Part shown: piece after piece, positions 9,001 through 64,000 of the stretch | Layout of the letters: each line of letters opens with the position of its first letter | How positions within the stretch are numbered: the stretch's first letter is position 1 | Assembly (NCBI GenBank): GCA_002430725.1 | Contig: DJCU01000008.1 | Location: 393 to 64,392 of the forward strand | DNA: 64,000 nt | Direction: 5' to 3' | Source of the DNA: Candidatus Gottesmanbacteria bacterium UBA5942 | GTDB lineage: Bacteria; Patescibacteriota; Microgenomatia; UBA10105; UBA927 | Made by a program: the position numbers and the translations under genes | Notes under the pieces: model-generated | What the model was told of the DNA's origin: nothing | Databases searched by the model: none | Seen by the model: the letters and a program-made list of their open reading frames with translations, nothing else

Positions 9001-12000
9001 AAAACGGAGATAATATCGACTTTTCTACTGAATCTCTTCGGGTTGTTCCCGCAGGATCGCGGTATAATTACGAACGGGCATTTGCGGCATGGAATGTGAC
9101 GAGTAACGAAGATAAAACTGCATTTCTTACTGCAGTGGCAACGCTTATCGATACGTTGCCAGAAAAAACAATATTTCCTGATGGAGACGACCAGATTTTC
9201 CGTGTCACAGGGTCGATAAATAGGACATTTGCGCAATTGGAGTTTGATGGGGTAATGAGAGAGATCCTTTCTCAGTTGCGCCCGGGAGAATCGGTAAGCC
9301 TTCGCGTGATACACCCCGATGGTGTTGTCATTGGTGATACCGCTATTGTGAAAGAGTCGGTAGACGTGGAACTTGGCACTATTACGCTTCGTGATGATGG
9401 GATAGCTGAGTTTCAAATGGGTAAAATAAAGCGATTGTCATCGCGGTTCCGAACAGAAAATGTGGCGGTGCCTGAAGCGTTGTCGTATAGCCCTGAACAA
9501 GTATTAGCGGTCATGATAGCGGCATTAGTAAAGCCCAGTTGTTATGTTGATGTAGGCGTACAACACAAAGTATATGCACAGTCGAAAAACCCCGAAACTG
9601 TAGGGAGCGTATGTCTCCTTGCTGCCCGCTCACTCATGAGTGCGGTGCGAAGCGCGGAACGTGGGCAATTTTGGCGTTCTATGCAGCAGTGGTGGCATGA
9701 ACAGCAAGTGATGTGGAATGTACTCCTTGGGAGACAGCGTGAACCGGTTTCGTTTCAAGATACATTAGATGTAGAACCAGCCATTGAATTGGAGGCAACG
9801 AGCGAAGCGCGCGAAGCAGTTATACGACTTTCAGAAATAACCGAGACCACGAGAGATGCTGAATTTATGGACATAATAAATCTTCCCGAGCTCTCGGTGC
9901 GAGATGCATTTCGTAGGCAGTTCGATACCGATATGACTGCATTTTTAGGATATATGTGGTTGTACGGACAACAAGAAGGAATGCTTACTGCCATAGAGAA
10001 ACAGACTGCCACTATCAATTTTCTCACTATGCTTCGTGATAGATATTCAGTCACATTACAGGCAGCACAACCATTCTTTTATCGTGAGTTAACTGAGGGT
10101 CATGAGCAGGATGCAAATCCTGCAGATTTTCTCATTTCCGATGCATTAGTAACGCTTATTGCAAGTAGTCCGACCGCGAGAGATGTGTATGCTGTGTGGC
10201 AAGAAATGGCGAAGGACACAAATCAGGACGTGCGATCACTTCAAGAAAATGAATGGCTCGTGCCGCATCCGTTTGATGACGGAAAAGAAATTCGTGTAAC
10301 ACACGAAGAAACATACGTGGAAGTGACGAATGGCGATGCTGTAGTACGACTTCCTATCGATAATACATATCATCCTTCGATACAAGAAGTTGCAGATAGT
10401 GTTGATGTGCTTGAGCCCGGTATTCGTGTATCGCTGCATACAGATGGTACTGCTGCTCTATTTGTGATGGCATATCAACACAGCATCGTTTGGGATGATG
10501 AGTATGAAATTAGATTTTCTACTGATAGACGGGGAAATTTGTATAAGAAAGGGGCAAAGCAAGCAGGCAAAATTACGGTATGGCCCAGATATACCGAAGA
10601 GTTTGCTGAGATTATCACCCCACCGCTTGCATTTGACGTGGCACATATAAACGGGACATATTTTGTGCAGAAAATGCCTAGCATTCGATTACACGAGGGT
10701 TTCGAGGTGATGAAACCAGATGGATCTCTGTATTCATTACAGGTGGGGGATGAAGTAAGTGAGATGGGTGTTTCGGATACGTATACGATCACCGATGCGC
10801 CCTTTGATTGGAAAGCGATAGGTGATGCTAACAAGTGGGTGTCGATATATGTAAGCCCGTTACGAGAAAGGGGTTTTGAGGGTCGTATTTGGGTAGATGC
10901 GGCAAATCCGGTGATACGTCATGTATCTAGCCCTGTCGATCCGTCCACAGAAAATATGAGTAGTGTGGTGCAGTCGATCCGCATACGTATTCCGGCAATT
11001 GTGGAGAAAAATAAAGCAATATCCCAAGCGCAAGCGACAACCACTACAGATGCGCTGAATAATGTCACACAAGCCATAACCGGAGTGTTTACGAATCCAG
11101 ATTGTTATGCCATGAGGAGTGAATACGTAGCGTACGCTGCCGAGACGACCCGCGATGGTACGTGTCCCACATGGGGAAAGTCGCCACGAAGGGTAGTGCG
11201 CGGCATGAGAAACAGAAGTGAACGGGAGCGGATGGATGCCGATGCTCGCAGTTATGTGCGGATGCTCATATTAGCAGTGCCTCCGATCGGATTTCTTGTA
11301 GACGGGGCGATTAAGGCAGGAATTTGGTATGTAACCGCTCCGCCTCCGCCACCAGTGACTCCACAGTGTACCTTGGGTTCATGTGCGGTGAATGGGCTGT
11401 GTCCCGCGGGTCAACAATGTAGCGCAACCGGTTGTTGTACACAGCTTTCTGCGTACGAAGATTTTGTTTGCTCGGTGGATAAACAGTATCTGTTGAAGCG
11501 CACCATGATAGCACCAGGTGGGTTTTCAATCGATATAAATGCGTCATTTAGATGTCTTGATGGGTGTGTCAATAATGATTGTGCGCAAAAAGCACAGATG
11601 ACGTTCCCTGAGCAGTGTACTGACGCGATGAAAAGGACACCGCTTCTTTATGGATTTGATAGTAATTATGGCGCTATGAATTCATGTCTTGCCATAGATG
11701 ATCTTGCGACCATGTCGTATTATCGTGAGTTTACTTGTAGTACAGATGGCTTGTCGGTCATAGAGCGTGCGACTGGAAATGTCGTGCGGACGTGCTTAGG
11801 CAACCAAACATGCAAACAATCTGGGGATATTGCTGATTGTTTGGGTCCGGTGGGGTACGTGCGACCGCAAAACGCAATTATCGATATGGTCTGTCAGGGA
11901 AATGACGTGTATTTGTTTGACTCTGATACACAGACATTTACCCAACACGTTGCCTCCTGTCCAGTGCGTGGTTGCCAGCAGGGCGCATGTATTGCATATG

Positions 12001-40265: not shown

Positions 40266-41063
40266 TTAATAAAATATATCTTCACCATTGGGGATCGTTG
40301 TTTTGTGCAGTTCTTTAACCGGTATACGGTTTCCTCCGATGTATAAAATTTTTAGATTTGGCGGAAGTACACGAGGAAATTCGCGTAGACGGTTGCCCGT
40401 AAGATCAAGTTCGGTGAGATTAGTGAGATATTGCATGCTGGCAGGTAATTCTTCAAGTTTGTTGTATGCCAAGCTAAGCGTCGTCAGATTGGTCAGGTTG
40501 CCGATTGATTCTGGTAGTCGGGAAATGCGGTTGCCTTCGAGATTAAGTATTTCGAGCGTTGAAATATCACCGATTTGCGTAGGAACTTCGGTAACCCGGG
40601 TATTTCTGATGGTTATTTGTTTAACATTTGTAAAAAGATTTATATTTGTAGGAAGTGATTCAAGTGGCGTATCTTCAATCAGAAGTAAGGTTACCCATGG
40701 CATGGGTTTTTGTAATGGTAATGTGCGTAATAGGTCGGTGCCGTCGAATATAAGTTCTTCTGTGGACGTTTTGGTGAGGTCGGGGTGATTATCTAATATA
40801 CGGAGAAAAAATGTTTGCGGTGAATATACTGCTTGCTGGTGAATTATCCGCTCCGGAAGTATATGTGCAAGATAAAAAAGTTGGGTAAACACCGCCAGCC
40901 ACATGTATACACTGATAGTCGCGATAACACATCCCACCAGTGACCACAATGCTATTTGGCGTATGTTAATGAGGCGATGAGTTTTGGGTTTTGCCGTGGG
41001 GACTATTGCTGCCGTGGAAGGCGCAAATGCGGTGGGTGATGGGGGGACAGGTTGCTCTTGCAT
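40266..41063 (-). CDS. Membrane-anchored leucine-rich-repeat protein
   Basis: The N-terminal TM helix WSLVGCVIATISVYMWLAVF is followed by LRR units: ISTLEILNLEGNRISRLPESIGNLTNLTTLSLAYNKLEELPASMQYLTNLTELDLTGNRLREFP. Confidence 0.7.
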   Translation of the reverse strand: MQEQPVPPSPTAFAPSTAAIVPTAKPKTHRLINIRQIALWSLVGCVIATISVYMWLAVFTQLFYLAHILPERIIHQQAVYSPQTFFLRILDNHPDLTKTSTEELIFDGTDLLRTLPLQKPMPWVTLLLIEDTPLESLPTNINLFTNVKQITIRNTRVTEVPTQIGDISTLEILNLEGNRISRLPESIGNLTNLTTLSLAYNKLEELPASMQYLTNLTELDLTGNRLREFPRVLPPNLKILYIGGNRIPVKELHKTTIPNGEDIFY

Positions 41064-51100: not shown

Positions 51101-51108
51101 TATTTGTG

Positions 51109-51831
51109 ATGAAACGGATGTTGTCTGCCCATCTCGTAAAGTTATCCCGCCGATCACCTCAGGCAGGATGGACACTTGCGGAGCTACTCATAGTAGTTGT
51201 CATTATCGCAATCCTTGCGATTATGTTTTTATTGATAAATTGGAAGCGAAATGTTTTTCGTGCGCAGGATGCACAGCGAAAAACTGATGTTGCTAATATA
51301 CGGCGTGCATTTGAGGAGTACTACAATGACAACAATTGTTATCCCTCTGTTGAGGTGCTCAATAATTGCGAAGGAAATGAACTAAGTCCGTATTTAGAAA
51401 AAATTCCCTGCGATCCCACGACACAGGAGCCATACTTATATCAACCTGACAGTGAAACAAATGTGTGTTTAGGAAATCGTGTGTGTACGAAGCTACAAGA
51501 TTGGGCTGATCCCGATATTACAACCCTTGGTTGTCACGCAGAGGAAGGGTGCGGATGGGGCGCGTATTGGAATTACTGCCTTGCGACTGGCACTACCGTA
51601 ACAGCTCCTGGATTTATTCCTGGCACGACGCCAACACCATCGTTAACTCCTACGCCTGCGTATGATGGGCCGTATGCTTGTCGTCCGGGCACGTTGTCGG
51701 GTGGTCAAGTTGTTAGCTCAGGGACATGTAATAATGTTGGTGATCCAGCTTCTTATGGATGTCCACGATCATTTGCAGAGTCTGATTGTCAGGGGTTATG
51801 CGGAAGCGTCAGTTATTGGTGTGCGCAATAA
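51109..51831 (+). CDS. Type IV pilin/pseudopilin-like protein 1 (prepilin-type N-terminal cleavage/methylation domain)
   Basis: RRSPQAG|WTLAELLIVVVIIAILA has Gly at -1, an aromatic residue at +1, Glu at +5 and a hydrophobic alpha1 helix. The C-terminal region contains Cys pairs. The track start at 51106 is a GTG, and the ATGs at 51109 and 51118 are in frame. Confidence 0.75.
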   Translation: MKRMLSAHLVKLSRRSPQAGWTLAELLIVVVIIAILAIMFLLINWKRNVFRAQDAQRKTDVANIRRAFEEYYNDNNCYPSVEVLNNCEGNELSPYLEKIPCDPTTQEPYLYQPDSETNVCLGNRVCTKLQDWADPDITTLGCHAEEGCGWGAYWNYCLATGTTVTAPGFIPGTTPTPSLTPTPAYDGPYACRPGTLSGGQVVSSGTCNNVGDPASYGCPRSFAESDCQGLCGSVSYWCAQ

Positions 51832-51859
51832 CATGATAATTGGTTATACTATAAAAGAT

Positions 51860-52381
51860 ATGATGAAAAAATTTCGTAACCGCGAAGGGTTTACCCTCAT
51901 GGAGCTTCTGATTGTTATGGTGATATTGTCAGTGCTTGTGGCTATCGCAACAGGTACATACGCATCAAGCTCACGTAGAGGTCGCGACAATCGGAGAAAA
52001 AATGACTTGCGTAATATTACGACCGCTCTCGAGACGTATTATAGTGATAAAGGTCGATATCCTTCCAGTAATGCCGCAGGTGAGATGGTGGGCTGTTGTG
52101 CGAGCCCAGGATGCGGTGATATTCAGGTGTGTAGTTGGGGTGGGCAATTCAAAGACACCAACGGAACACTGTATATGGTGCTTATTCCAGAAGACCCATT
52201 AAGTAGTCAGACATATTATTATCAGGCAGGAACTGATACGTACAGAATTTATGCTAAACTAGAAAATACACTGGATGAAGGTGATTATGTGAACCAGTCA
52301 GGGTACTCGGGTACTGATTGTTCAGTTGATAGTACGGTAGCATGCACGTATGGCATAAGTAGCGGCAATACAACTCCCTAA
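51860..52381 (+). CDS. Type IV pilin-like protein 2
   Basis: MMKKFRNREG|FTLMELLIVMVILSVLVAIA is a classic type IVa prepilin N-terminus. The track ORF 51662-52381 carries a spurious N-terminal extension overlapping pilin 1, so I used the ATG at 51860. Confidence 0.8.
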   Translation: MMKKFRNREGFTLMELLIVMVILSVLVAIATGTYASSSRRGRDNRRKNDLRNITTALETYYSDKGRYPSSNAAGEMVGCCASPGCGDIQVCSWGGQFKDTNGTLYMVLIPEDPLSSQTYYYQAGTDTYRIYAKLENTLDEGDYVNQSGYSGTDCSVDSTVACTYGISSGNTTP

Positions 52382-52392
52382 ATATATCAAAC

Positions 52393-52935
52393 ATGAAATC
52401 AATGATGCTTAATAGTAAACAAAGTAACAAACCATACGGTTTTAGCCTCATAGAATTGTTAGTGGCCATCGCGGTGATTGCGACCATTATTGGGCTTGCC
52501 TTGCCAAACTTCTTGGGAGCGAGAACTCGGGCAAGAGATGCGCGAAGGAAAGGTGAGTTGAGCCAGTTAAAAACAGCGGTGCAACTTTATTACAATGACT
52601 ACAAAGTATTTCCTCCGGCAGCCAATGGCACAGGGGTAACAAATTATATAGCTGGTTGCGGTACTGATGGTGAAACACTTTGTCCTGCTGGGTGTAGTGT
52701 TGATTTTGCCGCGGGTGCGACTACCGGATGCGATACAGTATATATGACAAATTTTCCGGGAGAGTTGGGGACAGGCATGTCGTATTATTCAAGTAGCGCA
52801 GATTTTTGTATCAAAGTGTCATTAGAAAACGTATCTGATGGAGACATAACGTCTTCGCAGGGTCGCTGCAGCGCTGCGTGTGTGAGGGCAGGAAGTGTGT
52901 TGTCCGGAGCAGATTACGCGGTGTGTTCAGAATAA
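52393..52935 (+). CDS. Type IV pilin-like protein 3
   Basis: MKSMMLNSKQSNKPYG|FSLIELLVAIAVIATIIGLALP, with C-terminal Cys pairs (CPAGCSVD...C; CSAAC). Confidence 0.8.
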   Translation: MKSMMLNSKQSNKPYGFSLIELLVAIAVIATIIGLALPNFLGARTRARDARRKGELSQLKTAVQLYYNDYKVFPPAANGTGVTNYIAGCGTDGETLCPAGCSVDFAAGATTGCDTVYMTNFPGELGTGMSYYSSSADFCIKVSLENVSDGDITSSQGRCSAACVRAGSVLSGADYAVCSE

Positions 52936-53168
52936 TACTCTAAGCATGTAAAGGAGGGGGGCGTTTATTCCGTACTAATGTACGTGAGGCAGCATCATTA
53001 CTACTGCCCTCATCGCTTCTTCTACGTACTCCATATGTGACTCACCACTAGCTTAACGTACGTGTTTGTAAGTCTTTTGCTTCGTATAGTGAATGCCTAT
53101 GCCATGAAAGGGGTACATGATTATGCACATCGAACATAGGTAACTTCACTCGGGAATAAGTGGTTGTA

Positions 53169-54011
53169 TTAGCGGCACGTTTGGGTAAGCGCTGCGGTGG
53201 TTACCGATGTAGAGCAGTTTGCCACTGCCGGATCTCTACACGTAAGGTTGGTGACGGTATAGCGGGTAGCTGAAACATTGCAATCGGGGATGGTGGTGAG
53301 CCATCCTGTATTTGCCGGATCCTGATTAGTTGAGCCTGATACGCCAGCCTGATAGCTTGCATATCCACTTCCATTAGTACAAGCGGTGCAGGTATAGAGA
53401 CGAGTGTATGCCTTGGTTTCGACTCCATCACAGTTCCAGTCATTGTCGAGGCTTGCATTGATAACATTGGTAAATGAACCGGGAAGATACGATGTTTGTC
53501 CGGGTTTCGCGTTGGCATTGCCATCAGAGCAGTCGGGGGTTGTTGATGTCAGTTTGTTTTTTCGGATATATCCAGTTCCACCGGTTGTGTTACACGCATT
53601 AGGGTTTACGGCATATGTATCACCATCACCGTCATAGACATAGCATTTTGTGTTTGCCCGTATGGTGACATTGCTTTGACTTGCAACAATTATACCGGTC
53701 CCTTCCTGCCCCTGTGTTTCTGGAGTAGAGATACTACCGATAAAAAGTGTGGTAGGCGTTTCAGTTGCGCCACCATTTAATGTCACAGTGACACCTGCCG
53801 GTACGGTAAGTGTTGTACCATTTGTCGCATCATCTGCGCCGACTGAGTAGTCGTATGCTTCAGTTGATTGACCATCAATGCCGCAGGTGGTTGCGGTAAT
53901 TGCTCCGCTTCCCAAAGTCCAATTACACGCTGCTGATACGTGGCCTGCAGTTATATGCAATGATACAAGAAAAAGAACTATTGCACTGATTGTATACGTC
54001 ATTTTTTTCAT
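53169..54011 (-). CDS. Secreted Cys-containing, Thr/Gly-rich protein (signal peptide)
   Basis: MKKMTYTISAIVLFLVSLHITAGHVSA|ACNW is a signal peptide with an AxA site. Last gene of the minus-strand surface operon. Confidence 0.55.
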   Translation of the reverse strand: MKKMTYTISAIVLFLVSLHITAGHVSAACNWTLGSGAITATTCGIDGQSTEAYDYSVGADDATNGTTLTVPAGVTVTLNGGATETPTTLFIGSISTPETQGQEGTGIIVASQSNVTIRANTKCYVYDGDGDTYAVNPNACNTTGGTGYIRKNKLTSTTPDCSDGNANAKPGQTSYLPGSFTNVINASLDNDWNCDGVETKAYTRLYTCTACTNGSGYASYQAGVSGSTNQDPANTGWLTTIPDCNVSATRYTVTNLTCRDPAVANCSTSVTTAALTQTCR

Positions 54012-54565
54012 TTTCTTTCCCTTATAGTAATCGGTATGCTTGTTTCACCTCTATCAGATGTTGCGACTACTGTCGGAATATAGTTATAAAGATATGATTC
54101 CGGAATAACCCATCGTCCTTCCCATATACCACCTAAATCTGTTCCACTTATTCGAGTAAGTTTTACCGGTGTTGTTTTGGTATCAGTACGTACATTTACT
54201 TGCGCGGATGTAACCGGAGAGGTATCTGATATTTTGACAGTAATAATCTGTGTTCCACCAATTGCCGGATCAAGTGGGTCAAAGCTGACCTCGGATATCG
54301 AAGGCCCCGTGCTGCCACCACCACCGACAGAGTAAGTATCTTTACCATGGATTAATTTGGTTGGCGTTGGTGTCGGTGTTGGGATTGGTGTGGGCTCGCC
54401 CTGAGATAGTTCCTGCGTTTGCGTTTCTTGTTGAAGGGTAGATTTATTTTCTATCCAGTACCATGCAAAAGCGGTGGCGCCGATAATAACTGCGATAGCA
54501 ATAATTGCTGAGGTAACTTGACCGTTAGTAGCCTTTTTCGAAGATGATTTCATGGCAGGAAACAC
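54008..54565 (-). CDS. N-terminally anchored protein with Pro-Thr linker and beta-rich domain
   Basis: TM helix AIIAIAVIIGATAFAWYWI, then PTPIPTPTPTPTK, then a C-terminal domain. It overlaps the downstream gene by 4 nt. Confidence 0.55.
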   Translation of the reverse strand: MFPAMKSSSKKATNGQVTSAIIAIAVIIGATAFAWYWIENKSTLQQETQTQELSQGEPTPIPTPTPTPTKLIHGKDTYSVGGGGSTGPSISEVSFDPLDPAIGGTQIITVKISDTSPVTSAQVNVRTDTKTTPVKLTRISGTDLGGIWEGRWVIPESYLYNYIPTVVATSDRGETSIPITIRERK

Positions 54566-54611
54566 TCAATACTTTTTAAGTACATCACTGTGGAGTGTGT
54601 TTGTCAATAGA

Positions 54612-57600
54612 TTAATTTATGTTTATCCCTTCTAGATTGATACCCTCGAGATTAAAATTGGTAGTTCCATCCGTTGTTGTGAATGAAAAGGGAGTGCCCT
54701 GGGTAGGAGACCACGTGTTTGTGCCCGCTGGATCAATACTGTAGCTACGCCAATAATATGTGGTGCTCACCGTAAGCGGTGTCTGGATAGTGTAGGTTGC
54801 TTGAGTGCCTGATGTATAAGCAGTGCTGGTTTGTGTATTTTGACCGCTCCAGCCAGTTTGCGAGCTGGTTTGATCAAAAGTTTGGCAGTTAGCGGTCATG
54901 CCAACGTTGGTGCATAGCTCAATTTTGTAGCGGAGGTAATCGCCATCTGCGTCTGTTCCTGTTGTTTTGAGATTAAGGGTAAGCGTTCGATTTGTTGCTT
55001 CGTCAGTAGGACTGTCTAACGTTGGGGCTGCTTGTGCTGCGTTCATGGTAAATGATGCGGTTTCCGATGACCATTCTCCTTCAGTGTTGTCGTCATCCCA
55101 AAATGCGAACCGGACATAATAGGTCGTTCCTTGTGACAGTGCACTTCCGGCATAGGAAATATCTGCGCATCGGTTGCCAGCAGTGCAATCGGTAATACTG
55201 GTTCCCGAAGCACCCGAATCCCATAAGACTGATGAAAAATTACTGTTGTCATCGACCTGTATGCGGTATTTGTTCGCGATGTCACCGCTGTCGGTGTCTA
55301 CATATATCGCGGAAAATTCAGGAGTTGTATCGATGACCCCTGTCGGATTTGTTGCCCCTTCAGTAAGAATAGTTGTCGGCACTGACGGTGCGACATTGGT
55401 GCGGTAGTCGAGGGTTACCGATGTTAGTTGTGAAGAAACTGCTTCATCGGAAGAGTGGAGGATAGCGCGGTACTGAAAGTAACGGTTGCCAGTTGAACTG
55501 GTGATCGTGGAATTGCCAGGGGTGGTGAGATAATCACCTGCGCTGCGTAGATCATCTATCCAGATAGTGCGACCCTCCGTATTGTCAGTAAGCCTCAATG
55601 TCATCAGTGTTGTTGCATTGAGGTGTGATACAAGCGGCTCGGTAATATTCCAGTATTCGCGTTGCCACTTAAATACCGATGCGTTTGCGGTAAATCCACC
55701 AGAGGGGAAGGTGCTTCCCGTGTCCCACGATGCGACAGTTGTAGCTCCGGTGCTTGTTGTCATTGCTGTTACTGTACCCTGTGCGATGTACTCAGTGCCG
55801 TCATAGTTTTCGCGGACGATGACTTTGTCACCGAGATAGAGTCCGCTTCCTTTACTCGTGAGACCGTAGCTTGTTGCATCAACAGTGAAGCTGGTATCAT
55901 CGCTGTCAGCAATCAGGTTTCCGCTATCTAGAAGAGCTGCAAAATCGATGGTAATGGGATGTGTTCGTAGTCCCGCTTCGTACGCTTGACGGATTTCATC
56001 TGCGGAGCGGGCAACATTGCTTAATCGTACTTCATCGATATTGCCCGACCAATTTTGGGAGATGCCGTCATAGGTACCGATATAGGTCGTATTACTATTG
56101 GTTGCCATGGTAGCAGGTGCCCCAGTGCCGGATTTGACGAGAACACCATTAATATAGATGTAGTAGGAGGTGCCGGACTTTACCCATGCGACATGACTCC
56201 ATTGATTAAGGGGGAGCGCACCACCGGTAACATCGGATATTGTCCATGCGGCTCCTGATCCAATATAGAACGATACTTGAGCGCCATACTGACCCACATA
56301 GAGAACGTGTTGTTTACTGAATACCCGATAGTGAGTTGAAGCCGCTTGTGCAGTTGGGTATACCCATGCGTCTGCGGTCATATCCGTAAGGTTGTCGACT
56401 TGCGTGATAGATCCGAGGTTTATACTATCGTATGCGCCATTAAATGCTTTTGCGCCTCCGATTTTCCCTGCAGTATGAGTGACTCCCACCGTTATTGCGT
56501 TTCGGTTGTTTCCTGTGGCATCCTGGAGCGAATACGCGGGGATGACGGAAATTTCTTCGAATGTGCCGGTGTGCTGATATTGGGCTACCTGGACGCGCAT
56601 CGGGGTATTGGAAACAGACGAATCAGCGGCAAGAAGCGTTGTCCAGTTGGTGTACGCGCCGCCTCGGATAGAATAGCTTGCGGTGTTAGCGGTGGTGAGG
56701 GTTATTTTAATCTCATATCGAGTATTTGCGGCATAACCGGAACCGTATGGTCCTCCGGTTTGAGCTCCATTTTGGTAGACATAGAACGATCCCGCGTTAA
56801 AATACAACGCGTGGTTTATATTCGTATAAGAGGGTGTTGCAGTTGTGTCTGTCGCAAAGCCGATCATCATGTGGTTGGGGGCAGCGACACTTGCACCGGT
56901 AAGAAACCGGGCATAAATTGTCTGACCTATTGTTCTGGTGTACCGCGCCTGAGACACTATTGCAGAATCCCATGCCGCAGCTGCACCTGCAGTGAGGACA
57001 ATACCGTTATTTTGGGCGATTTTGTTTGCATTGGGATCGGTTTCCGCCCATTTTTGGGCATTAATCGTTGTGCCGGGAAATGTATCATCAGCAATCGGAT
57101 GTTGCTCGTCCAGGTGCCATAAAGCGACTGTATTGTTATCGGGCTGATAGTTTGCAAATCCGGATTCGCCCATGGTAGCAGACATATATGTGCCAGGTTT
57201 GTCTGCAGCAATTGCAAACGGGAGACTCGTTTTGGTGGAAAGGTCGGTAGACGATAGAGTTGTAGATATTGTGTGATCGCGTCCTGCCCGGTATGCTTCG
57301 GCGGCTTCCAGAGCGGTTCCTGCGACATTTCGTATCACCACTTCATCGATTCTGCCGTCAAAAAAGAGTTCCGATGCATAGTTGCTGGCACCGATTTTGA
57401 GGGTGGTCGTCGTGTTTTGTACGTTCGTAAAAGATGTGCTTGCGAATTGACCCTCCAGTCGACCGTTGACATAGAGGTAACACGTATCGCTCGTGTCGAA
57501 CGTGGCATAGATATGAGTCCAAGTACCGGCATTTGGGAGAAAACCTGCGTCACAGCTAATTTGGTTATTGGAAGCATCCCGTACGGCAAATCGGATTCCT

Positions 57601-60600
57601 TCTCCTCCGTTCAAGCGAATAAAGAATGCATTGCCCGCAGCGGTGTAATCAGCTTTTGCCACAATACTATTGTGATCTGAGGCGCTCGGAAGCGTATCGG
57701 GATTGATCCAGACTGATATGGTTCCTTGCGTTGCCCCATCAAGGATTGTGACATCTCCGATATCGACCACGTCGTCCGTCCCGTCAAAATTTCGTGCGGT
57801 TTTTACCGCTCCTTTACCACTCGTTGTGCCGGTTGGAGTCCCATGATTGGCATTGGTACTCAGATCATGGATGTACGCCCCAGTCCCATCCGTTTCATCC
57901 ATCGGCCAGTAGCCTACCGTTGCCGCATCGATGGGGAGCTGACCGGTTTGTATTTTCTGTGCGGCTGTTCCCTCTGTTTTTATCACCGTATCCGTTGATG
58001 GGTGCATCGTATTTGGGTTGGTAGAACCGGCAAGATATTTTTCCCGGATAGTATTTGCCGATAGCGCTGTATCATATATCCTCACTTCATCAATAGAGCC
58101 ACCAAAATAGTTGCCGCGTCCCACCGGACCGACATATGGCGGACAGGCGCCGATATCGAGTTCACCATTGGGAGCAATTTGCGTGCCGGTAATTGTCCCC
58201 GATGCATGGAATTCACCATCAAGATAGGTTGAAACTGTTGTTCCCAATATCGTCATAACACCATGATGCCATTGGTTGTCGGTAACAACGCTGGTGCTTA
58301 CTGGTGCTATGTTGGAAGTTGTGTTGTAGTATTGGCCAACAAACTTTCCATTGGTATCCACACCGATCGAATACAGGGCTCTCGTGCCAGTTGCCGTATC
58401 TTTCCGCACAAGACATTGAAATGCAGATGGTATTGCCGCGATTTTAAACCACGCCTCTACGGTAAGCGGGTCGGCAAGCTGGAGCGATGCATCATCTGCA
58501 ACACTTATGTAACTGCTCGTACCGTTGAATTGTCGTCCGTTGCCAAAAGCGCCATCGGTAATTATTGCGTTGCTTGCAGCTCCATCGTTTACTCCCGTTT
58601 GGTCGCAAGTGTCGTTGGTGCCGCCAGTGCAGGTATTGTCGGCAGTTTCATCCATTGGCCAGTAGGAGACAAGATTGGCTTCTGCAGTGTCAGAAAGATA
58701 CGTGCTGTCGTAGGCGTTGATTGCTGTCTCTCCGGTAATTGGTCGCCATGCTTCCCAGCTGCCGTCATCAGGGGAGCTGTCGGCACCCACCCGGGTTTGC
58801 AGCTCGACATTGCCGGCGTTGTAGTTAGAAAGGATTTCAGATGCCGTAAGAGCGCGTGCGTACACCGACACTGCATCAATCGTTCCGTTCCAATAGAGGC
58901 TCGACCCTCTATTGCCGATATAAAATGGGCCGGTTGAATCGGTTACCTGAGTACCTGTTTTGGTTGTTGATGAGCCCGATAATACGCCATCAACATAAAG
59001 ACTGATAGTTGTGCCGTCATACGTTCCCGTTAGATAATGCCACAGACCGTCATTAACCGGTTTATTACTTTGGGCAACCATATACCCGGTATCCGAAGTG
59101 TTAAGGAGGATAAAGTTTGCGTATCCGGCAACATTAAGCCCCGTTTCAAAGCTATATGAATACTGTCCTGTCGCAGCACCTTTCGCAAGGATCATTTGCC
59201 GTGCAGTATTAGTTGTTTTGACCCACGCGCTGACAGACCAATTTCGTGATCCTATATCCAAATTACTTGTTCCTCCGCATGTTCCGTCTGCGCAGGTTAT
59301 ATAATCTGAAGAGCCGTTAAACATCACTGCTCCCGCTCCCCATCGTTTATTGGCTGCAGTCCAACCTGATCCTGCTGCGGCATCCTGGCTTCCTGTTTCA
59401 CTGAAGCCGGTGAGTGTCCCATCGCACGATGCTCCGCAGGAGCCTGCCGCGTTGTCTGCAGTCGTTCCGCTTGTTTCATTGAAATTCCACTGGGCAACAA
59501 GGCTCGTTGTATCATTGAGCGTTTCACCATCACCGGTGGCGACACCCAGCTCATTCCAAGAGAATGAATTCCATTGCATAAGGGTTGACGTGCCACTGGT
59601 GAGATCAATGACATCAGACGTGTAGGTGCTATATGGTCGTCTACTTGCTGCGAGCATAATTTCTTCGGGCGACTTGGCCACTCCGCTTATGCGGATTTCA
59701 TCAATTTCTCCGTCAAACCAGTTGCCAAGCGTCCCGTTACAGGTTGTATCAGCGTCCGTACCAATGAGTAATCCGCACGTACTGAAGCTCATGGGTGCCG
59801 CATCATTTCCTACGACCGTATCAACAATGCCATTGATGTAGAGTAATATGACGGAGCCTGATCGTGTTACCGCAATATGTTGCCAGTCTGTGGTAATTGT
59901 GCGAGTTGATGCAAGCCGGACGAGGGCGTTGGTTGCAACGTTGATGACGTTGGATGTGATATGAATATAGAGTTCGTTACCTCCACTGCCGTCTGTTGCC
60001 ATGAAGATCATCTCGTCCGTTGTCGTGTCAGGCTTGACCCAGGCTTCGTAGGTAAAGTCGCCTGTGGGAAGCGATGGGCTGCTTACCTCGATGTAATCAC
60101 TTGTGCCATTAAATGTGCGCGATGCTGATCCCACTTTCGGAGTGCTGGTGTCGATGGTTGTGCCGGTTGCCACTCCGTGGCGTCCGTTGCCGCTTGTATC
60201 ACACATGTCTTGACCTCCAGAGCAACTATTGTCAGCCGATTCATCAAGGTGCCAAAGCGCAATAGTATTGCTGTCTGCAACGTGCGGTTGGTTGGGGGTT
60301 TCTAAAACAGGTGACGACCCTGAACCTGTGTCTTTTAGTCTGTTCATTTGTCCGGTCGCAAATTCGCTCGATGTATCGTGGACAACCGTGGGGTCTATGG
60401 TAATGGGGTACGCTCGTGCAGGATCAGATAGCCATGATGGATCCATGTCGAGCACGAGCATATAGGAGCGCTCCGCTATTCCTGATCCTGCTGGTTTTGT
60501 GACAGGTCCGAGAAGTTGTTGTGATATATAAGTATACTTATTTATATCTTTTGATATTTTTTTGTAGGCACTCGCATTGTCTGTCAGGCGGTATCTGATG

Positions 60601-61181
60601 TTTCGCGTAACCGCGCCATTTGCGTCTACAGCGAATGGCTGCATGACATGAAATTGATACTCTCCATGTTGATCGACAAACACGATTTGTCCTTCTGGAG
60701 TGACAACTGGTCGTGCGTTGGTGACCGACAGCGTAGAAAGAAACGTATTTCTCCCTTGAGGTTTACTGAGGATAATTTCTTCTTTGATACCGTTTGGAAG
60801 TGATTGGTATCGTATACCTAACCCTTCTTCTGTGGTGTAGTTTACTTCTTTCGCATTATGTTTTGTGTCCGCAGCGGTAACTGCCATAGCAAATGTTGCT
60901 TTTGATACTCCTCGAGATACTGAAAGAGAGACTGCTTGTTTTTTCGCTTCCAGCTGGGTGGTAAGACCTTCGTTGTGCCGGATAGTAAATTGATCAGAGA
61001 GTAACGATTTTTTTACGACCGAGTTGGGAGAATGAGTGAATGACCGGATAAAGGGAAAAGCCACGAGTGGGATTGCGATAACAGCGATGATATATACCAA
61101 CACATGACGTTTTGTCATCATGTGCTTCACCCATTTAAGCATTTTTACTGATGTGTGGCGTATATGATGTGAATGTTTCAT
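54612..61181 (-). CDS. Giant (2189 aa) N-terminally anchored surface protein with at least 5 LamG/ConA-like lectin domains and C-terminal FN3-like modules
   Basis: N-terminal TM helix VLVYIIAVIAIPLVAFPF. Five repeats of the Laminin_G_3 pattern F(N/D)G(T/S)xDY(I/V)x(V/I)..<20 aa>..(E/S)AW(V/F)K..<~60 aa>..W(H/Q)H(I/V)..(L/Y)Y(V/I)(N/D)G: FNGTSDYIEVS..FTYEAWVKPD..WQHIAVTRSGS..LYINGI; FNGSSDYITCA..SVSAWVKTT..WHYLTGTYDG..LYVDGV; FNGTSSYISVA..TVEAWFKIA..WHHGVMT; FDGTDDVVDIG..ISVWINPD..WTHIYATF..LYVNGR; FNGAYDSINLG..TADAWVYPT..WSHVAWVKSG..IYINGV. C-terminal FN3-like units (YYVRFAFWDDDNTEGEWS; YYWRSYSIDPAGTNTWS). Confidence 0.85.
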   Translation of the reverse strand: MKHSHHIRHTSVKMLKWVKHMMTKRHVLVYIIAVIAIPLVAFPFIRSFTHSPNSVVKKSLLSDQFTIRHNEGLTTQLEAKKQAVSLSVSRGVSKATFAMAVTAADTKHNAKEVNYTTEEGLGIRYQSLPNGIKEEIILSKPQGRNTFLSTLSVTNARPVVTPEGQIVFVDQHGEYQFHVMQPFAVDANGAVTRNIRYRLTDNASAYKKISKDINKYTYISQQLLGPVTKPAGSGIAERSYMLVLDMDPSWLSDPARAYPITIDPTVVHDTSSEFATGQMNRLKDTGSGSSPVLETPNQPHVADSNTIALWHLDESADNSCSGGQDMCDTSGNGRHGVATGTTIDTSTPKVGSASRTFNGTSDYIEVSSPSLPTGDFTYEAWVKPDTTTDEMIFMATDGSGGNELYIHITSNVINVATNALVRLASTRTITTDWQHIAVTRSGSVILLYINGIVDTVVGNDAAPMSFSTCGLLIGTDADTTCNGTLGNWFDGEIDEIRISGVAKSPEEIMLAASRRPYSTYTSDVIDLTSGTSTLMQWNSFSWNELGVATGDGETLNDTTSLVAQWNFNETSGTTADNAAGSCGASCDGTLTGFSETGSQDAAAGSGWTAANKRWGAGAVMFNGSSDYITCADGTCGGTSNLDIGSRNWSVSAWVKTTNTARQMILAKGAATGQYSYSFETGLNVAGYANFILLNTSDTGYMVAQSNKPVNDGLWHYLTGTYDGTTISLYVDGVLSGSSTTKTGTQVTDSTGPFYIGNRGSSLYWNGTIDAVSVYARALTASEILSNYNAGNVELQTRVGADSSPDDGSWEAWRPITGETAINAYDSTYLSDTAEANLVSYWPMDETADNTCTGGTNDTCDQTGVNDGAASNAIITDGAFGNGRQFNGTSSYISVADDASLQLADPLTVEAWFKIAAIPSAFQCLVRKDTATGTRALYSIGVDTNGKFVGQYYNTTSNIAPVSTSVVTDNQWHHGVMTILGTTVSTYLDGEFHASGTITGTQIAPNGELDIGACPPYVGPVGRGNYFGGSIDEVRIYDTALSANTIREKYLAGSTNPNTMHPSTDTVIKTEGTAAQKIQTGQLPIDAATVGYWPMDETDGTGAYIHDLSTNANHGTPTGTTSGKGAVKTARNFDGTDDVVDIGDVTILDGATQGTISVWINPDTLPSASDHNSIVAKADYTAAGNAFFIRLNGGEGIRFAVRDASNNQISCDAGFLPNAGTWTHIYATFDTSDTCYLYVNGRLEGQFASTSFTNVQNTTTTLKIGASNYASELFFDGRIDEVVIRNVAGTALEAAEAYRAGRDHTISTTLSSTDLSTKTSLPFAIAADKPGTYMSATMGESGFANYQPDNNTVALWHLDEQHPIADDTFPGTTINAQKWAETDPNANKIAQNNGIVLTAGAAAAWDSAIVSQARYTRTIGQTIYARFLTGASVAAPNHMMIGFATDTTATPSYTNINHALYFNAGSFYVYQNGAQTGGPYGSGYAANTRYEIKITLTTANTASYSIRGGAYTNWTTLLAADSSVSNTPMRVQVAQYQHTGTFEEISVIPAYSLQDATGNNRNAITVGVTHTAGKIGGAKAFNGAYDSINLGSITQVDNLTDMTADAWVYPTAQAASTHYRVFSKQHVLYVGQYGAQVSFYIGSGAAWTISDVTGGALPLNQWSHVAWVKSGTSYYIYINGVLVKSGTGAPATMATNSNTTYIGTYDGISQNWSGNIDEVRLSNVARSADEIRQAYEAGLRTHPITIDFAALLDSGNLIADSDDTSFTVDATSYGLTSKGSGLYLGDKVIVRENYDGTEYIAQGTVTAMTTSTGATTVASWDTGSTFPSGGFTANASVFKWQREYWNITEPLVSHLNATTLMTLRLTDNTEGRTIWIDDLRSAGDYLTTPGNSTITSSTGNRYFQYRAILHSSDEAVSSQLTSVTLDYRTNVAPSVPTTILTEGATNPTGVIDTTPEFSAIYVDTDSGDIANKYRIQVDDNSNFSSVLWDSGASGTSITDCTAGNRCADISYAGSALSQGTTYYVRFAFWDDDNTEGEWSSETASFTMNAAQAAPTLDSPTDEATNRTLTLNLKTTGTDADGDYLRYKIELCTNVGMTANCQTFDQTSSQTGWSGQNTQTSTAYTSGTQATYTIQTPLTVSTTYYWRSYSIDPAGTNTWSPTQGTPFSFTTTDGTTNFNLEGINLEGININ
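56100..60270 (-). other. LamG/ConA-like domain array (5 copies) within the giant surface protein
   Basis: See the parent CDS. The first copy begins just after ALWHLDE (about nt 60250-60270). The fifth copy (AKAFNGAYDSINLGS) maps to about 56410-56460 and extends to about 56100. Confidence 0.75.
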
Positions 61182-61182
61182 A

Positions 61183-64000
61183 TTAGTTAATAATCCACCA
61201 GTTAAAGTTTATAGGTGTTGTGAGCGCAGTGTCTATGGCGACAATAAACCCAACCCCTGGCAGTTTTTCTTTGACATACAATACCTGATTGCCAGTGCTT
61301 GAAAGTGGGGTGAGGTAGACGAGCGAGTCAGCTGCAACCTGACTTGAAAGTACGGTGACCTCGCTGAAATTGGCCGGAAGTATGTTCGAGCCAACTGTGT
61401 TGGTCGGTATCGCAGACTCACTTGATGAAGTAGTGGTGTCGAGGCTGATATTAAGTTTATTTACCGTTGCTGATCCGGATGCGATGAGGCTATTTGCAGC
61501 AACACTCCCTGCAAATGTCGCGCTGCCTGAAGCATCGATGACAGCAACGGTTTCGTTGTTTACTCCTTTGATGACCAGATCAGCAAAGCTGGATGAGGGG
61601 GTAGCCTGTTCTTCCAAGAATGGGTTGGGGATTTCGTTACTCAGGTTAATTGTCAGATCGCCTCCAGTTACTGGAGAAATAGTGCCGATTCCTAATACAC
61701 CGCCAACGGTGGTATCACCTGAGACTGCGAGGTTGCCCCGCATAAATATGCGGTTGTAGATATCGACAAGGATAGTGCCATTGAGGATATCAACATTTGC
61801 CAGTTTGTTTTTCTGGATATAGAGGGTTTCGCCAATTGTTTCGATAACGTTTTCTGCAAATCGTATGATGCCGTCAATTAAGAGCGAGCCGGTGATTGCG
61901 GTACTTGAAAGTAATGTGTCTCCGAGGACAAATAAGTCAGTATTGACGGTCACATTTCCGTCATTAACGATTACTGCATTCCCAAGGGAAGGTGATGAGG
62001 ATGGCGGGGGAGTTAGTTGACCTGATGATGTACCAAGGGTTGAGAGTGAGTTCTCAAGTGACTGGAAGCGAGTATCGAGATCGCCAAAGCTCGTGACAAT
62101 GCGATCAGCAAATAGTTGACCAGCAATCGTTGCATCCTGCGTGGTGATAGTGTCGCTGGTAAGATCACCGGTAATAGTTGCGTCTCCTGTGACATCGATG
62201 TTTTCTGCGGTAAGCGTGCCAGATAGTGTTGCGTTTCCGAGGGCATCGAAGGAGGTTACCACTTCATTGGTTTGAGTATTTTGTATTGTTACTTCTTGTG
62301 ACTCGTTAAGGTCAAAGCTAATCGTACCCGACTCCGTTGCGATTGGCGAAATACTATTTGTCCGTAATGAGGTAATGTCAGCTACCGGTGAGGTGATTGA
62401 TTCTGTCACGACGACCCGACCAAAGAGACCGTTTATGCTTTGAATAAGCCCTGTCTGTAGGTTGGCAATCATGAGGCGTGCAAATGCAGCAGAGTCCTCA
62501 ATGATTTCGTTTGATATAGAATTATGTATTCTGTAAGCTGATGCCGATGCATCAATTGGTTCAATAGCAAGATCAGCAAGCGGATCGATAATTTCGGCAT
62601 CTGGGCCTGATGACGACCACCAGCCATTATCATAATCCACGATAAATCCATCCGGGTCATCATTAGATCGGGTAGTAGACCAGTTTTCCCAGTCATAGCG
62701 GGGAGCAGTGAGACGGTATGAAACCTCTGATGGTCGAGATGTATAGATAGATAGCTTGAGTGTATTTCGATCAAATCCATACCATGCTCTCGTGTTGCTG
62801 CTCGGCGAGAGCAGGACGACAAACTGGTCTGCATTTCTTTTAAGATCTGTAGTGCGTGAGAACAACCAGAGATCGGTGCCTTCTGGTTCAGTGGTAAAGT
62901 CGATAACTGCGCGGTAGCCAACACCGGCAACATAATCATTGGTGGTAATTGTGCCGGTTGTTTCTTCTTTAACACCGGTCATGCCCGCAAGATAGGTGGC
63001 GTAGTTGTTGCCATTTATTGTATATGGAGGATCGTACGTACCTGCATTAATACGTCCAGTACAGGTGCTACCGTCTACGCTTATACAGACTTCTGCGCTG
63101 TCACCTGCGCTGCGATCACCATTTCCGAGAATAATGAGGCCGGTGCCCGCACCTATGGTGATGTTGTTGTTACCATTTGACGTGATGCTAAATGCTCCGT
63201 CACTAATGATATTCCCGTCTACCATGATGGATGTCGTACCATTTGCCGGGTCTATATAGTACGTTCCTGCAGCGTTTCCGAGGTCAACAAACCGTTCACC
63301 AGTGACGTCACCGTCATTTTCTACTCTGAATTTGGTAACACCTGAAGCAGATGCAGAAATAATATCTTGGTTTTCGAATTGGTCAAATATGGCAGCTGCG
63401 CGACCAGTCGTGTAGAGCGAGGGGAGCGGGTTTGATATAACATGGAGCTTCGCAACCGGTGTGACTTGATTGCCAATGCCGATGTTCCCGTTTCCTAACA
63501 TGGTAAAGCTTGGTGTGTCATCGTTGTTGGCAATTTGAAATACCGTTTCGGCATTAGTACCGCCTTGGGTAGAATCCACATCGAGGTCGCCAATACTTGT
63601 TCCATTTGCCTTGCCTCCAATTATTTTGATTGCTGGAGTTGAGTTTGCGGGAGTGGTCGAGCCGATTACACCACGAATACTTAATGCCTGTGCATCACTT
63701 TCGGTAATAGCAGTAAGCTGCGCACCTCCGGCGCTTGACGACAGGGGAGCAACATGGAGAATGACGTCTGTTTGTGCAAGCGTTGTTAATCCATGGGCTA
63801 TGTCTCCATCTGAAAGTGCAAATGACGGATCGCTAGAGGCGGCTGACGAAATCTCAATGTCATAGTCGGGTGTCGCATCGTTGACACCAAAATTTCCTAC
63901 AATATCTATATTAGTGATATCCGTAAGACTATCGGCGGAGAAGTCAACGATGTCAGAGGCGGCGTCTATCGTGATATCTCCTGTGGTATTAGAGATAACA
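61183..64000 (-). CDS. Fibrous Gly/Thr/Asn/Ile-rich surface protein, 5'-partial (open to window edge)
   Basis: The ORF track lists 61183-63579 starting at a GTG. I translated the same frame upstream (63580-63999) and found no stop, so the gene continues beyond the right edge (at least 939 codons). The sequence is low-complexity and repetitive (GNGNIGIGNQ; NGTILVDIYNRIFMRGNLAVSGDTTVGGVLGIGT), typical of beta-helical fibre or adhesin proteins. Its stop is 2 nt from the LamG gene start. Confidence 0.7.
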   Translation of the reverse strand, partial: VISNTTGDITIDAASDIVDFSADSLTDITNIDIVGNFGVNDATPDYDIEISSAASSDPSFALSDGDIAHGLTTLAQTDVILHVAPLSSSAGGAQLTAITESDAQALSIRGVIGSTTPANSTPAIKIIGGKANGTSIGDLDVDSTQGGTNAETVFQIANNDDTPSFTMLGNGNIGIGNQVTPVAKLHVISNPLPSLYTTGRAAAIFDQFENQDIISASASGVTKFRVENDGDVTGERFVDLGNAAGTYYIDPANGTTSIMVDGNIISDGAFSITSNGNNNITIGAGTGLIILGNGDRSAGDSAEVCISVDGSTCTGRINAGTYDPPYTINGNNYATYLAGMTGVKEETTGTITTNDYVAGVGYRAVIDFTTEPEGTDLWLFSRTTDLKRNADQFVVLLSPSSNTRAWYGFDRNTLKLSIYTSRPSEVSYRLTAPRYDWENWSTTRSNDDPDGFIVDYDNGWWSSSGPDAEIIDPLADLAIEPIDASASAYRIHNSISNEIIEDSAAFARLMIANLQTGLIQSINGLFGRVVVTESITSPVADITSLRTNSISPIATESGTISFDLNESQEVTIQNTQTNEVVTSFDALGNATLSGTLTAENIDVTGDATITGDLTSDTITTQDATIAGQLFADRIVTSFGDLDTRFQSLENSLSTLGTSSGQLTPPPSSSPSLGNAVIVNDGNVTVNTDLFVLGDTLLSSTAITGSLLIDGIIRFAENVIETIGETLYIQKNKLANVDILNGTILVDIYNRIFMRGNLAVSGDTTVGGVLGIGTISPVTGGDLTINLSNEIPNPFLEEQATPSSSFADLVIKGVNNETVAVIDASGSATFAGSVAANSLIASGSATVNKLNISLDTTTSSSESAIPTNTVGSNILPANFSEVTVLSSQVAADSLVYLTPLSSTGNQVLYVKEKLPGVGFIVAIDTALTTPINFNWWIIN

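Follow-up and report, generated by a model that had tools for sequence, protein, structure and literature searches.

The stretch of DNA analysed here (the window, 64,000 nt of contig DJCU01000008.1 of Candidatus Gottesmanbacteria bacterium UBA5942) carries at its right-hand end, on the minus strand between positions 53169 and 64000, a group of four genes that a preliminary description, drawn from the sequence alone, had called a surface or adhesion operon. The best explanation that we can offer is that this region holds most of a conserved cell-surface fibre gene set of the Candidate Phyla Radiation (CPR); the closest relatives of the locus are themselves CPR, from Candidatus Gottesmanbacteria. 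The four co-directional open reading frames (ORFs) are present as described. In the order of transcription they are the C-terminal portion of the fibre gene (61183 to 64000, i.e., 938 codons plus the stop at 61183-61185, open at the window end), the gene of a 2189-aa protein with laminin G-like domains that we refer to as the LamG giant (54612 to 61181), and the genes of two small proteins, p185 (54008 to 54565, 185 aa from a GTG start or 181 aa from the ATG chosen in the Joint Genome Institute, JGI, gene call) and p280 (53169 to 54011, 280 aa). The 46-nt spacing between the LamG giant and p185 and the 4-nt overlap of the p185 and p280 ORFs were borne out by the coordinates, but the gap of 2 nt that had been given for the fibre and the LamG giant is a single nucleotide, the junction reading TAA-T-ATG. 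With its start codon only 1 nt past the fibre stop, the LamG giant would seem to be translationally coupled to the fibre. Given the ORF lengths, the E-values detailed below and the synteny found in several genomes, the observation lies far beyond what could be expected by chance.

The fibre gene and its reading frame

The frame of the fibre is open to the last base of the window, in agreement with the earlier view that this upstream partner runs off its end. By exact look-up of the 2189-aa protein we retrieved a near-identical JGI contig (Ga0074427_100117, L001 below), with a single mismatch to the window in 19.4 kb, and the DNA to the right of position 64000 recovered in this way contains the rest of the fibre gene followed by a leucyl-tRNA synthetase (LeuRS) gene on the other strand. 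Upstream of the LamG gene, the JGI annotation of this contig divides the sequence among three "genes" (1177, 161 and 1543 aa), of which the first lacks a stop and the other two lack a start. Since these pieces are separated by runs of N alone, the three-gene model can be discarded in favour of one gene broken by scaffold gaps, and the single-gene model is confirmed by gap-free orthologues, a single ORF of 2454 aa in one relative (L015) and likewise a single ORF in another (L004). The full gene on L001 encodes at least 2835 aa plus the two scaffold gaps. What had been taken for a separate, partial and low-complexity beta-helix-like fibre protein is therefore the C-terminal third of a giant gene, in which Pfam detected no beta-helix family. 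The name "bactofilin CcmA" given by JGI to the C-terminal fragment does not hold either (Pfam Bactofilin, E 0.93).

We place the fibre start codon at ATGGCTAGTGTAATGTGG (MASVMW), 46 codons downstream of the JGI model. The JGI start would add an extra N-terminal hydrophobic segment, leaving either the N-terminal core-binding domain (see below) outside the cell or the collagen inside; we rejected it because the sequence ahead of MASVMW has in-frame stops in three of four relatives (L003, L004, L015) and aligns as conserved non-coding DNA. Both the start of this first gene of the operon and the conserved region preceding it lie outside the window. Ahead of the fibre gene, the non-coding DNA (L001 positions 1130-1340) averages 85% identity among four genomes whose proteins are only 60-87% identical. 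The four-genome alignment of this region displays a palindrome, ATGCGG-N23-CCGCAT, together with an invariant CTCTTGACAG, and it may be an operator. At a conserved TTGACA in the same DNA no promoter was called by a sigma-70 consensus scan.

Anatomy of the fibre

Reading from MASVMW, the protein is composed of a core-binding domain, a Pro-rich linker, a transmembrane (TM) helix, Gly-X-Y repeats and a long non-collagen region. The first ca. 115 aa match the N-terminal core-binding (SAM-like) domain of tyrosine recombinases, both in Pfam (Phage_int_SAM_1, PF02899, E 1.3e-11, 45 bits against a cutoff of 22.3) and in TIGR02224 (XerC, positions 3-114, E 5e-14), and a profile of the family N-terminus finds the N-domain of a phage integrase (2key) and XerA (5hxy) in the PDB. 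The catalytic domain of recombinases was not found, with no Phage_integrase match in Pfam. After residue ca. 115 the chain continues with a Pro-rich linker of ca. 100 aa and a single hydrophobic helix, with Lys before it and acidic residues after it, and then the collagen. From the hydropathy scan and this distribution of charges we predict a bitopic membrane protein with its N-terminus inside.

The collagen region lies outside the window, on L001, where all three assembled pieces match Pfam Collagen (PF01391; E 2e-118, 1e-25 and 1.4e-36). It consists of runs of 284, 53 and 85 triplets, each of them unbroken, i.e., at least 422 in total. The Y position is Thr in 74% of the triplets and X is Ala, Pro or Ser; the triplets are mostly GPT, GST, GAT and GEA. 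Such a sequence is expected to form a trimeric triple helix, and its Thr residues are probably O-glycosylated. The rise of the collagen helix is 0.286 nm per residue, and the 1266 assembled repeat residues would, as a triple helix, measure ca. 360 nm, a lower bound owing to the scaffold gaps. The two gap-free relatives have 95 (L015) and 189 (L004) triplets.

Beyond the repeats there is a non-collagen region of 1288 aa, the last 938 residues of which are covered by the window. It contains a strongly conserved module (core at 62698-62970, minus strand; DPPYTING..KYATY..GVKEET..SYRLTAPRYD), which was modelled by AlphaFold2 as a compact alpha/beta-sandwich with a mean predicted local distance difference test (pLDDT) score of 83, above 90 in the core. 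The C-terminal half of the protein (649 aa, modelled as a monomer) gave a mean pLDDT of 58.5 with two confident domains. At its very end (61186-61395, minus strand) the model has a beta-sandwich knob with a pLDDT of ca. 86-90, terminating in ...FNWWIIN, a C-terminus that is conserved in homologues. Searching the conserved module with Foldseek against BFVD retrieved phage tail, tail-fibre-like, collagen-repeat and H-type-lectin proteins at E-values from 9e-5 for the best match to 1e-3, with a probability of 1.0 for most of the top matches; among them are a "Collagen triple helix repeat protein [Siphoviridae]", one of two collagen-repeat phage proteins, and a "Phage tail fiber-like protein". In the PDB the top matches of the same module (7eea, 6cl6) were the receptor-binding domain of the cyanophage Pam1 tailspike (E 0.011) and the R2 pyocin fibre. 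The matches of the whole model were a pyocin fibre, a Klebsiella phage depolymerase and Helix pomatia agglutinin, all with E > 0.05 and without indication of the part aligned. The last 99 residues resemble the domain that ends a phage capsule lyase (Pfam K1-lyase_C), with a score below the cutoff of the family (E 2.3e-4, 22 bits against 27).

At the sequence level the fibre has no match in PHROG, the module has no sequence relatives in IMG/VR (2.9 million contigs), the 938-aa part within the window has none in INPHARED (50,697 phage genomes), and a sequence search of the PDB with the C-terminal region returned nothing usable. We conclude from the predicted structures that the distal fibre probably consists of receptor-binding-protein-like folds, in a gene that is cellular.

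The LamG giant and the two small proteins

The LamG giant opens with a signal-anchor TM helix (residues 27-47) and an unassigned domain of ca. 210 aa. There follows the array of five Laminin_G_3 domains (55971-60173, minus strand, residues 337-1737), which the preliminary description had recognised and which Pfam confirms in five stretches (PF13385, E 4.6e-120, 397 bits against a cutoff of 27.6); the envelopes of the units in a phmmer self-scan are 337-509, 601-790, 867-1052, 1111-1300 and 1562-1737. The segment at ca. 1360-1550, between the last two, is unassigned and appears ConA-like by eye. A further unassigned region of ca. 190 aa precedes two tandem beta-sandwiches (54672-55376, minus strand, residues ca. 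1936-2170) and the end ...EGININ. The preliminary description had listed FN3 in this protein; Pfam fn3 itself has no match, and the C-terminal sandwiches are Ig-like/FN3-like, the first being of the Rha78A-N type (Ig_Rha78A_N, residues 1936-2046, E 1.4e-12) and the second copy judged by eye from its sequence pattern only. The protein is predicted to be extracytoplasmic and membrane-anchored.

One feature of the C-terminal ends deserves mention in its own right. The LamG giant ends in ...NFNLEGINLEGININ (window 54612-54680), the fibre in ...NFNWWIIN (61186-61210) and the alternative second giant of another locus, L014 (positions 5561-9268), in ...NMNGLNMQGVNIN, all three with a short hydrophobic/Asn motif terminating in -IN. 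This ending could be a common C-terminal recognition or sorting signal, or a coincidence.

Both small proteins are largely as first portrayed, i.e., one anchored protein with a Pro/Thr linker and one secreted protein. p185 has a basic N-terminus, a hydrophobic anchor (TM residues 17-38), the Pro/Thr linker EPTPIPTPTPTPT and a C-terminal domain of ca. 100 aa, and matches nothing in Pfam, NCBIfam or the PDB. p280 starts with a Sec-type signal peptide (residues 1-27/28). Of its 12 cysteines, most occupy positions conserved in its family of 54 homologues, all ca. 250-300 aa long and none with a Pfam domain. Nothing significant was found for p280 itself in Pfam or NCBIfam, and nothing usable in a PDB sequence search. 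Its motif DxDGDxY...DC.D.NA.A.PGQ recalls what we take to be the MopE-type metal-binding repeat, which Pfam did not report. In one distant locus (L018, 19699-20901) a 400-aa protein joins the p185 C-terminal domain (E 8e-12) to a p280-like half (E 2e-6), and because of this fusion we regard p185 and p280 as probably acting as one unit.

The 233-nt convergent spacer between p280 and the last of the pilin genes that face it (52936-53168) contains, by reading, an imperfect hairpin, GAGGCAG...CTGCCCTC; a terminator scan of the spacer called none.

A widespread family of fibres

The 1288-aa region finds 69 homologues, assigned, where they carry a name, to Gottesmanbacteria, Woesebacteria, Roizmanbacteria, Kerfeldbacteria, Uhrbacteria, WWE3 or the unspecific "Patescibacteria group", along with a few metagenome-assembled genomes that are probably mis-binned. 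The full-length members, of ca. 1600-2240 aa, have a common plan. They begin with one or two integrase-SAM-like domains, or with one or two MerR/HTH_17 domains, followed by a single TM helix, a long region with GNVGIGTxxP motifs, the conserved module (consensus DPPYTINGxKYATY...GVKEET...SYRLTAPRFD) and the C-terminal FNWWIIN. Some of them also carry Peptidase_S74, Beta_helix/NosD (P0028, P0031) or Laminin_G_3 domains, and in N-terminal regions of relatives that lack an annotation our scan likewise detected integrase-SAM or HTH_17 domains, either complete or in half.

We have measured the size of the family by the conserved module, a word search with the N-terminal domain having given only 6, mostly fragmentary, matches. 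From 1.84 billion proteins the module profile retrieved, counted at 50% clustering, 1207 cluster representatives with E <= 0.001, of which 695 reach E <= 1e-30, many of the listed matches being fragments. The longest members reach 5657 aa, and in long, apparently full-length ones the module sits ca. 500-700 residues from the C-terminus. Our home-made profiles, applied to the 101 long members that start with Met, typed the N-terminus as integrase-SAM-like in 63 and as MerR/HTH_17-like in 9; in the remaining 29 these rather crude profiles recognised no N-terminal domain. The TM helix after the N-terminal domain is detectable in the majority of members and is single in most full-length homologues. 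Long collagen runs are present in only three of the 101, so the stalk is a lineage-specific insertion into a larger fibre family.

Between close relatives the N-terminal domain equals the fibre in its degree of conservation. Members that are ca. 30% identical share the invariant positions KNY.SD, NRRLS (in a helix) and GW...NPA, and the identity of the domain compared with that of the fibre is 87% vs 81% in the closest relative and 62% vs 62% in L015. In the L018 locus the gene call puts the integrase-SAM-like domain into a 165-aa gene of its own (9282-9779), just upstream of a fibre gene that does not have this domain at its N-terminus; the split may be genuine or the result of a frameshift error.

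Fragments of this family are deposited under names such as "site-specific integrase, partial", "collagen-like protein, partial" and "bactofilin". The first of these, given by NCBI to N-terminal fragments, is misleading, since the catalytic domain is absent and a TM helix and a fibre follow. The family appears to be unrecognised so far: in the literature that we searched we found no description of CPR collagen-like proteins or of fibres anchored by integrase-SAM or MerR domains. It has been overlooked partly because collagen repeats break assemblies, and the gene ends up in the databases as misnamed fragments.

Conserved neighbourhood

The chromosomal position of the fibre locus is constant in genomes down to 40% protein identity. 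The complete order fibre, LamG giant, p185 and p280, convergent on three pilin genes, is kept in three other loci (L003, L005, L007), where a Wzy_C/glycosyltransferase cluster also comes after the pilins. Elsewhere the arrangement varies. The second giant of L014 is a 1235-aa DUF7483 protein that has only the last ca. 185 aa in common with the LamG giant (54% identical), while L015 and L013 have no second giant and carry a LamG domain within the fibre polypeptide itself, a fusion that is also found in the proteins P0006-P0014. The locus L010 has a fibre 33% identical to ours; 1 nt beyond it begins a giant with 36% identity to our LamG giant over 1991 residues, and a second LamG giant comes next. 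The small proteins p185 and p280 follow the fibre in seven loci. In L009 both come directly after it, and p185 stands directly after the fibre or the second giant in L003, L005, L007, L009, L013, L014 and L015. The recurrent synteny and the fusions are the strongest evidence that the products act jointly in some manner.

The three pilin genes of the window (51106-52935, plus strand) are of the prepilin type (N_methyl) and converge on the operon tail to tail, just as the preliminary description had it. The N_methyl motif is confined to these ORFs, with no match in the fibre, the LamG giant, p185 or p280. Homologues of two of the three lie directly downstream of a distant fibre in L016, there in the same direction, and a pilin-like ORF follows the fibre in L018; altogether pilin homologues adjoin fibres in three lineages, and the three pilins of the window are probably functionally linked to the operon. 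In other lineages genes of natural competence are found 6-9 kb upstream of the fibre, ComEA and ComEC in L010 (2416-4665), L017 (2457-4727) and L018 (538-1934), and DprA and ComM in L016 (1972-4379). As L010, L017 and L018 are syntenic with each other, this proximity amounts to at most two independent observations.

On the other side of the pilins the large glycosylation locus that had been noticed at first sight is indeed there. It spans ca. 35 kb (ca. 13500-51040) and encodes an NPCBM protein, YfhO, PMT_2, two DegT aminotransferases, several GT2/GT4 enzymes, a methyltransferase, two Wzy_C proteins, a radical-SAM/SPASM protein and an Alg14/Alg13-like pair. The Thr-rich collagen and the pilins are candidate substrates of this locus. 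Inside it there is also a 265-aa leucine-rich-repeat protein (40266-41063, minus strand; LRR_4/LRR_8, E 1e-17). At the far end of the window (99-12740, plus strand) a 4213-aa ORF has a SecA_DEAD/DEAD-helicase-like region (207-566), a GNAT domain (1146-1241) and a weak GGDEF match (1581-1659). It is another giant, unrelated to the fibre and apparently cytoplasmic.

Proposed function and its alternatives

Our preferred reading, in which we have a moderate degree of confidence, is that the locus encodes a trimeric apparatus for long-reach adhesion. Three N-terminal TM helices would anchor a trimeric fibre in the membrane, and its collagen stalk would carry a tip resembling phage receptor-binding proteins well past the glycan coat of the cell, where the tip could capture a ligand on a host cell or a surface. 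The LamG domains may contribute carbohydrate or protein binding; the p185/p280 pair would assist the fibre and the adjacent type IV pilins would provide retraction or motility. This fits with proposals that surface lectins and pili are attachment factors of CPR (PMC12911398; PMC11665869). Attachment to a host or prey, which the preliminary description had already suggested, is likewise what we infer here.

Several considerations weigh against this adhesion apparatus. What the sequences show is how the genes are built, which domains they encode, the family and the recurrent synteny and fusions; surface exposure, trimerisation, glycosylation and binding, and with them the association of the four products, are inferred. 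Most of the 649-aa model is of low confidence, shaft regions included, as one would expect when a probably trimeric fibre is modelled as a single chain, and the structural matches to phage proteins are modest even at their best (E 9e-5 in BFVD and 0.011 in the PDB). The length of the stalk is a lower bound because two scaffold gaps interrupt the repeats on L001. The second giant is variable, i.e., LamG x5, a DUF7483 protein or absent, so that the fibre has no obligatory partner in the LamG giant. An episymbiotic way of life is itself an assumption, since Gottesmanbacteria have no cultured member. Finally, a cytoplasmic domain of the DNA-binding type is left unexplained by a purely adhesive role.

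This last point is the basis of another possibility, which we regard as unlikely without dismissing it, namely that the fibre serves as the outer arm of a bitopic one-component system, ToxR-like or Notch-like, that senses contact or tethers DNA. A ligand or a pull would alter the cytoplasmic core-binding-like or MerR-type domain, or proteolysis would release it, and the output would be gene regulation or the tethering of the chromosome or of incoming DNA at the fibre base, with adhesion as the input step. The conservation of the N-terminal domain, equal to that of the fibre, is in line with this idea, as is the fact that the two N-terminal types, integrase-SAM-like and MerR/HTH_17-like, are unrelated folds with DNA binding in common. 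The palindrome preceding the fibre gene and the presence of ComEA, ComEC, DprA and ComM near fibres of other lineages point the same way. However, DNA binding by the N-terminal domain is putative, and both domain types are common phage-derived helical modules that could equally be a cytoplasmic stopper or a protein-binding domain. Besides, there are the 29 long members in which our crude profiles recognised no such domain, no protease or partner regulator is conserved at the locus, and the shared synteny of L010, L017 and L018 makes their competence genes a single case. A signalling or DNA-tethering role of the cytoplasmic domain is unlikely. Similarly unlikely is its extension to the whole CPR family of ca. 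1200 representatives, in which a sub-micrometre fibre would be physically linked with a DNA-binding module in the cytoplasm (a recombinase core-binding domain or a MerR/Xis-type HTH) and would serve for signalling or DNA tethering in response to contact or tension. Host capture would then be relayed to the chromosome or to incoming DNA by release or localisation of the DNA-binding domain, and the neighbouring pilins would take part, as would ComEA/ComEC in other lineages.

We consider it improbable that the fibre forms a protective or structural glycoprotein coat, a hair-like nap against phages, grazers or desiccation, or a surface spacer, with no specific host. The Thr-rich GXT repeats do resemble the collagen-like region of BclA, which forms the hair-like nap of Bacillus exospores and differs in length between strains. 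Here too the collagen length differs among relatives (95, 189 and at least 422 triplets), and the neighbouring glycan-biosynthesis locus, with PMT_2, YfhO, two Wzy_C proteins and many glycosyltransferases, would suit a coat. But the distal ca. 1290 aa are conserved, elaborate and receptor-binding-protein-like, their consistent pairing with LamG domains and pilins fits recognition better, and most members of the family have no collagen at all.

A depolymerase-type role, in which the fibre and the LamG proteins would cut capsule or cell-wall glycans of the host, is very improbable. Some members of the family have Beta_helix/NosD domains (P0028, P0031), the fold matches include structures of tailspike and depolymerase type, and there are glucanases with ConA-like folds; yet no catalytic family was detected by Pfam or NCBIfam in any of the four proteins of the locus, and Laminin_G_3 domains are generally non-catalytic binding modules.

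Extremely improbable, lastly, is a phage-derived element (the tail fibre of a prophage, a remnant or a tailocin, with the "integrase" N-terminus as its integration module), for although the folds resemble phage tail proteins, K1-lyase_C matches below threshold, a virion structural protein is among the PHROG families matched by the LamG arrays and the N-terminal domain is integrase-SAM-like, the fibre is TM-anchored by prediction and has LeuRS, pilins and glycosyltransferases for neighbours, the window and the L001 neighbourhood contain no capsid, portal, terminase, sheath, baseplate or recombinase catalytic domain, the position is kept down to 40% protein identity and there are no relatives in IMG/VR or INPHARED. 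A phage tail fibre within a prophage was the alternative that the preliminary description had singled out, and no capsid, terminase or full integrase lies beyond the window. A present-day prophage is largely refuted by the LeuRS neighbour and by the absence of PHROG, IMG/VR and INPHARED relatives of the fibre. An ancient phage origin of the fibre modules is possible.

Comparison with known systems

Taken one by one, collagen-like surface proteins, LamG giants and phage-like fibres are all familiar types. With BclA and the streptococcal Scl1/Scl2 the fibre has in common long, unbroken, Thr-rich Gly-X-Y repeats and a distal globular domain, a likewise variable number of repeats, an expected trimeric surface stalk and a glycosylation locus nearby. 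It differs from them in its anchor, which is an N-terminal TM helix with a recombinase-like domain and not an exosporium-targeting peptide (BclA) or a C-terminal LPXTG motif (Scl), and in its distal part, where ca. 1290 aa of modules resembling phage receptor-binding proteins replace a C1q/TNF-like or V domain. Neither a C1q/TNF-like trimerisation domain nor an exosporium-targeting motif was found in the fibre by Pfam or by a PDB sequence search. Its stalk of at least 422 triplets is several times the length of those of BclA and Scl. Phage tail fibres and tailspikes, some of which contain collagen repeats, and the R2 pyocin fibre are akin to it by fold matches, by the K1-lyase_C-like C-terminus and by the Peptidase_S74 of relatives; unlike them, our fibre is chromosomal, predicted to be TM-anchored and provided with a cytoplasmic domain, and it has no Peptidase_S74 chaperone domain.

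The "lollipop" logic of anchor, stalk and head is also that of the trimeric autotransporter adhesins, which are held by a C-terminal outer-membrane barrel whereas the anchor here is an N-terminal TM helix, in a cell of the monoderm type. A plan of cytoplasmic domain, single TM helix and extracytoplasmic ligand-binding part, the one predicted for the fibre, is known from ToxR, CadC and the RsgI-type anti-sigma factors, whose cytoplasmic domains bind nucleic acid or a sigma factor and of which the RsgI type has carbohydrate-binding modules outside the cell. ToxR and CadC use an OmpR-type winged helix-turn-helix, in contrast to the core-binding or MerR/HTH_17 domains of the fibre family, which moreover has thousands of residues outside. 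XerC/XerD and phage integrases share the core-binding domain with the fibre, and the catalytic domain is found only in these recombinases. As for the partner, repeated Laminin_G_3 domains on a membrane-anchored giant recur in CPR and other bacteria (PMC12911398 for CPR lectins), but here the LamG protein stands out by its genetic coupling to a collagen/phage-like fibre, into which LamG is sometimes fused.

CPR/Patescibacteria are thought to live attached to other cells, and apart from type IV pili the molecules of this contact are barely known. The locus described here provides a concrete and widespread candidate for such a contact, a membrane-anchored fibre whose modules resemble the receptor-binding parts of phages and which is genetically coupled to LamG giants, two small proteins and pilins. 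In this lineage it is carried by a collagen stalk of considerable length for cells as ultra-small as those of CPR. The conserved cytoplasmic domain of the DNA-binding type raises the question whether these fibres may do more than adhere.

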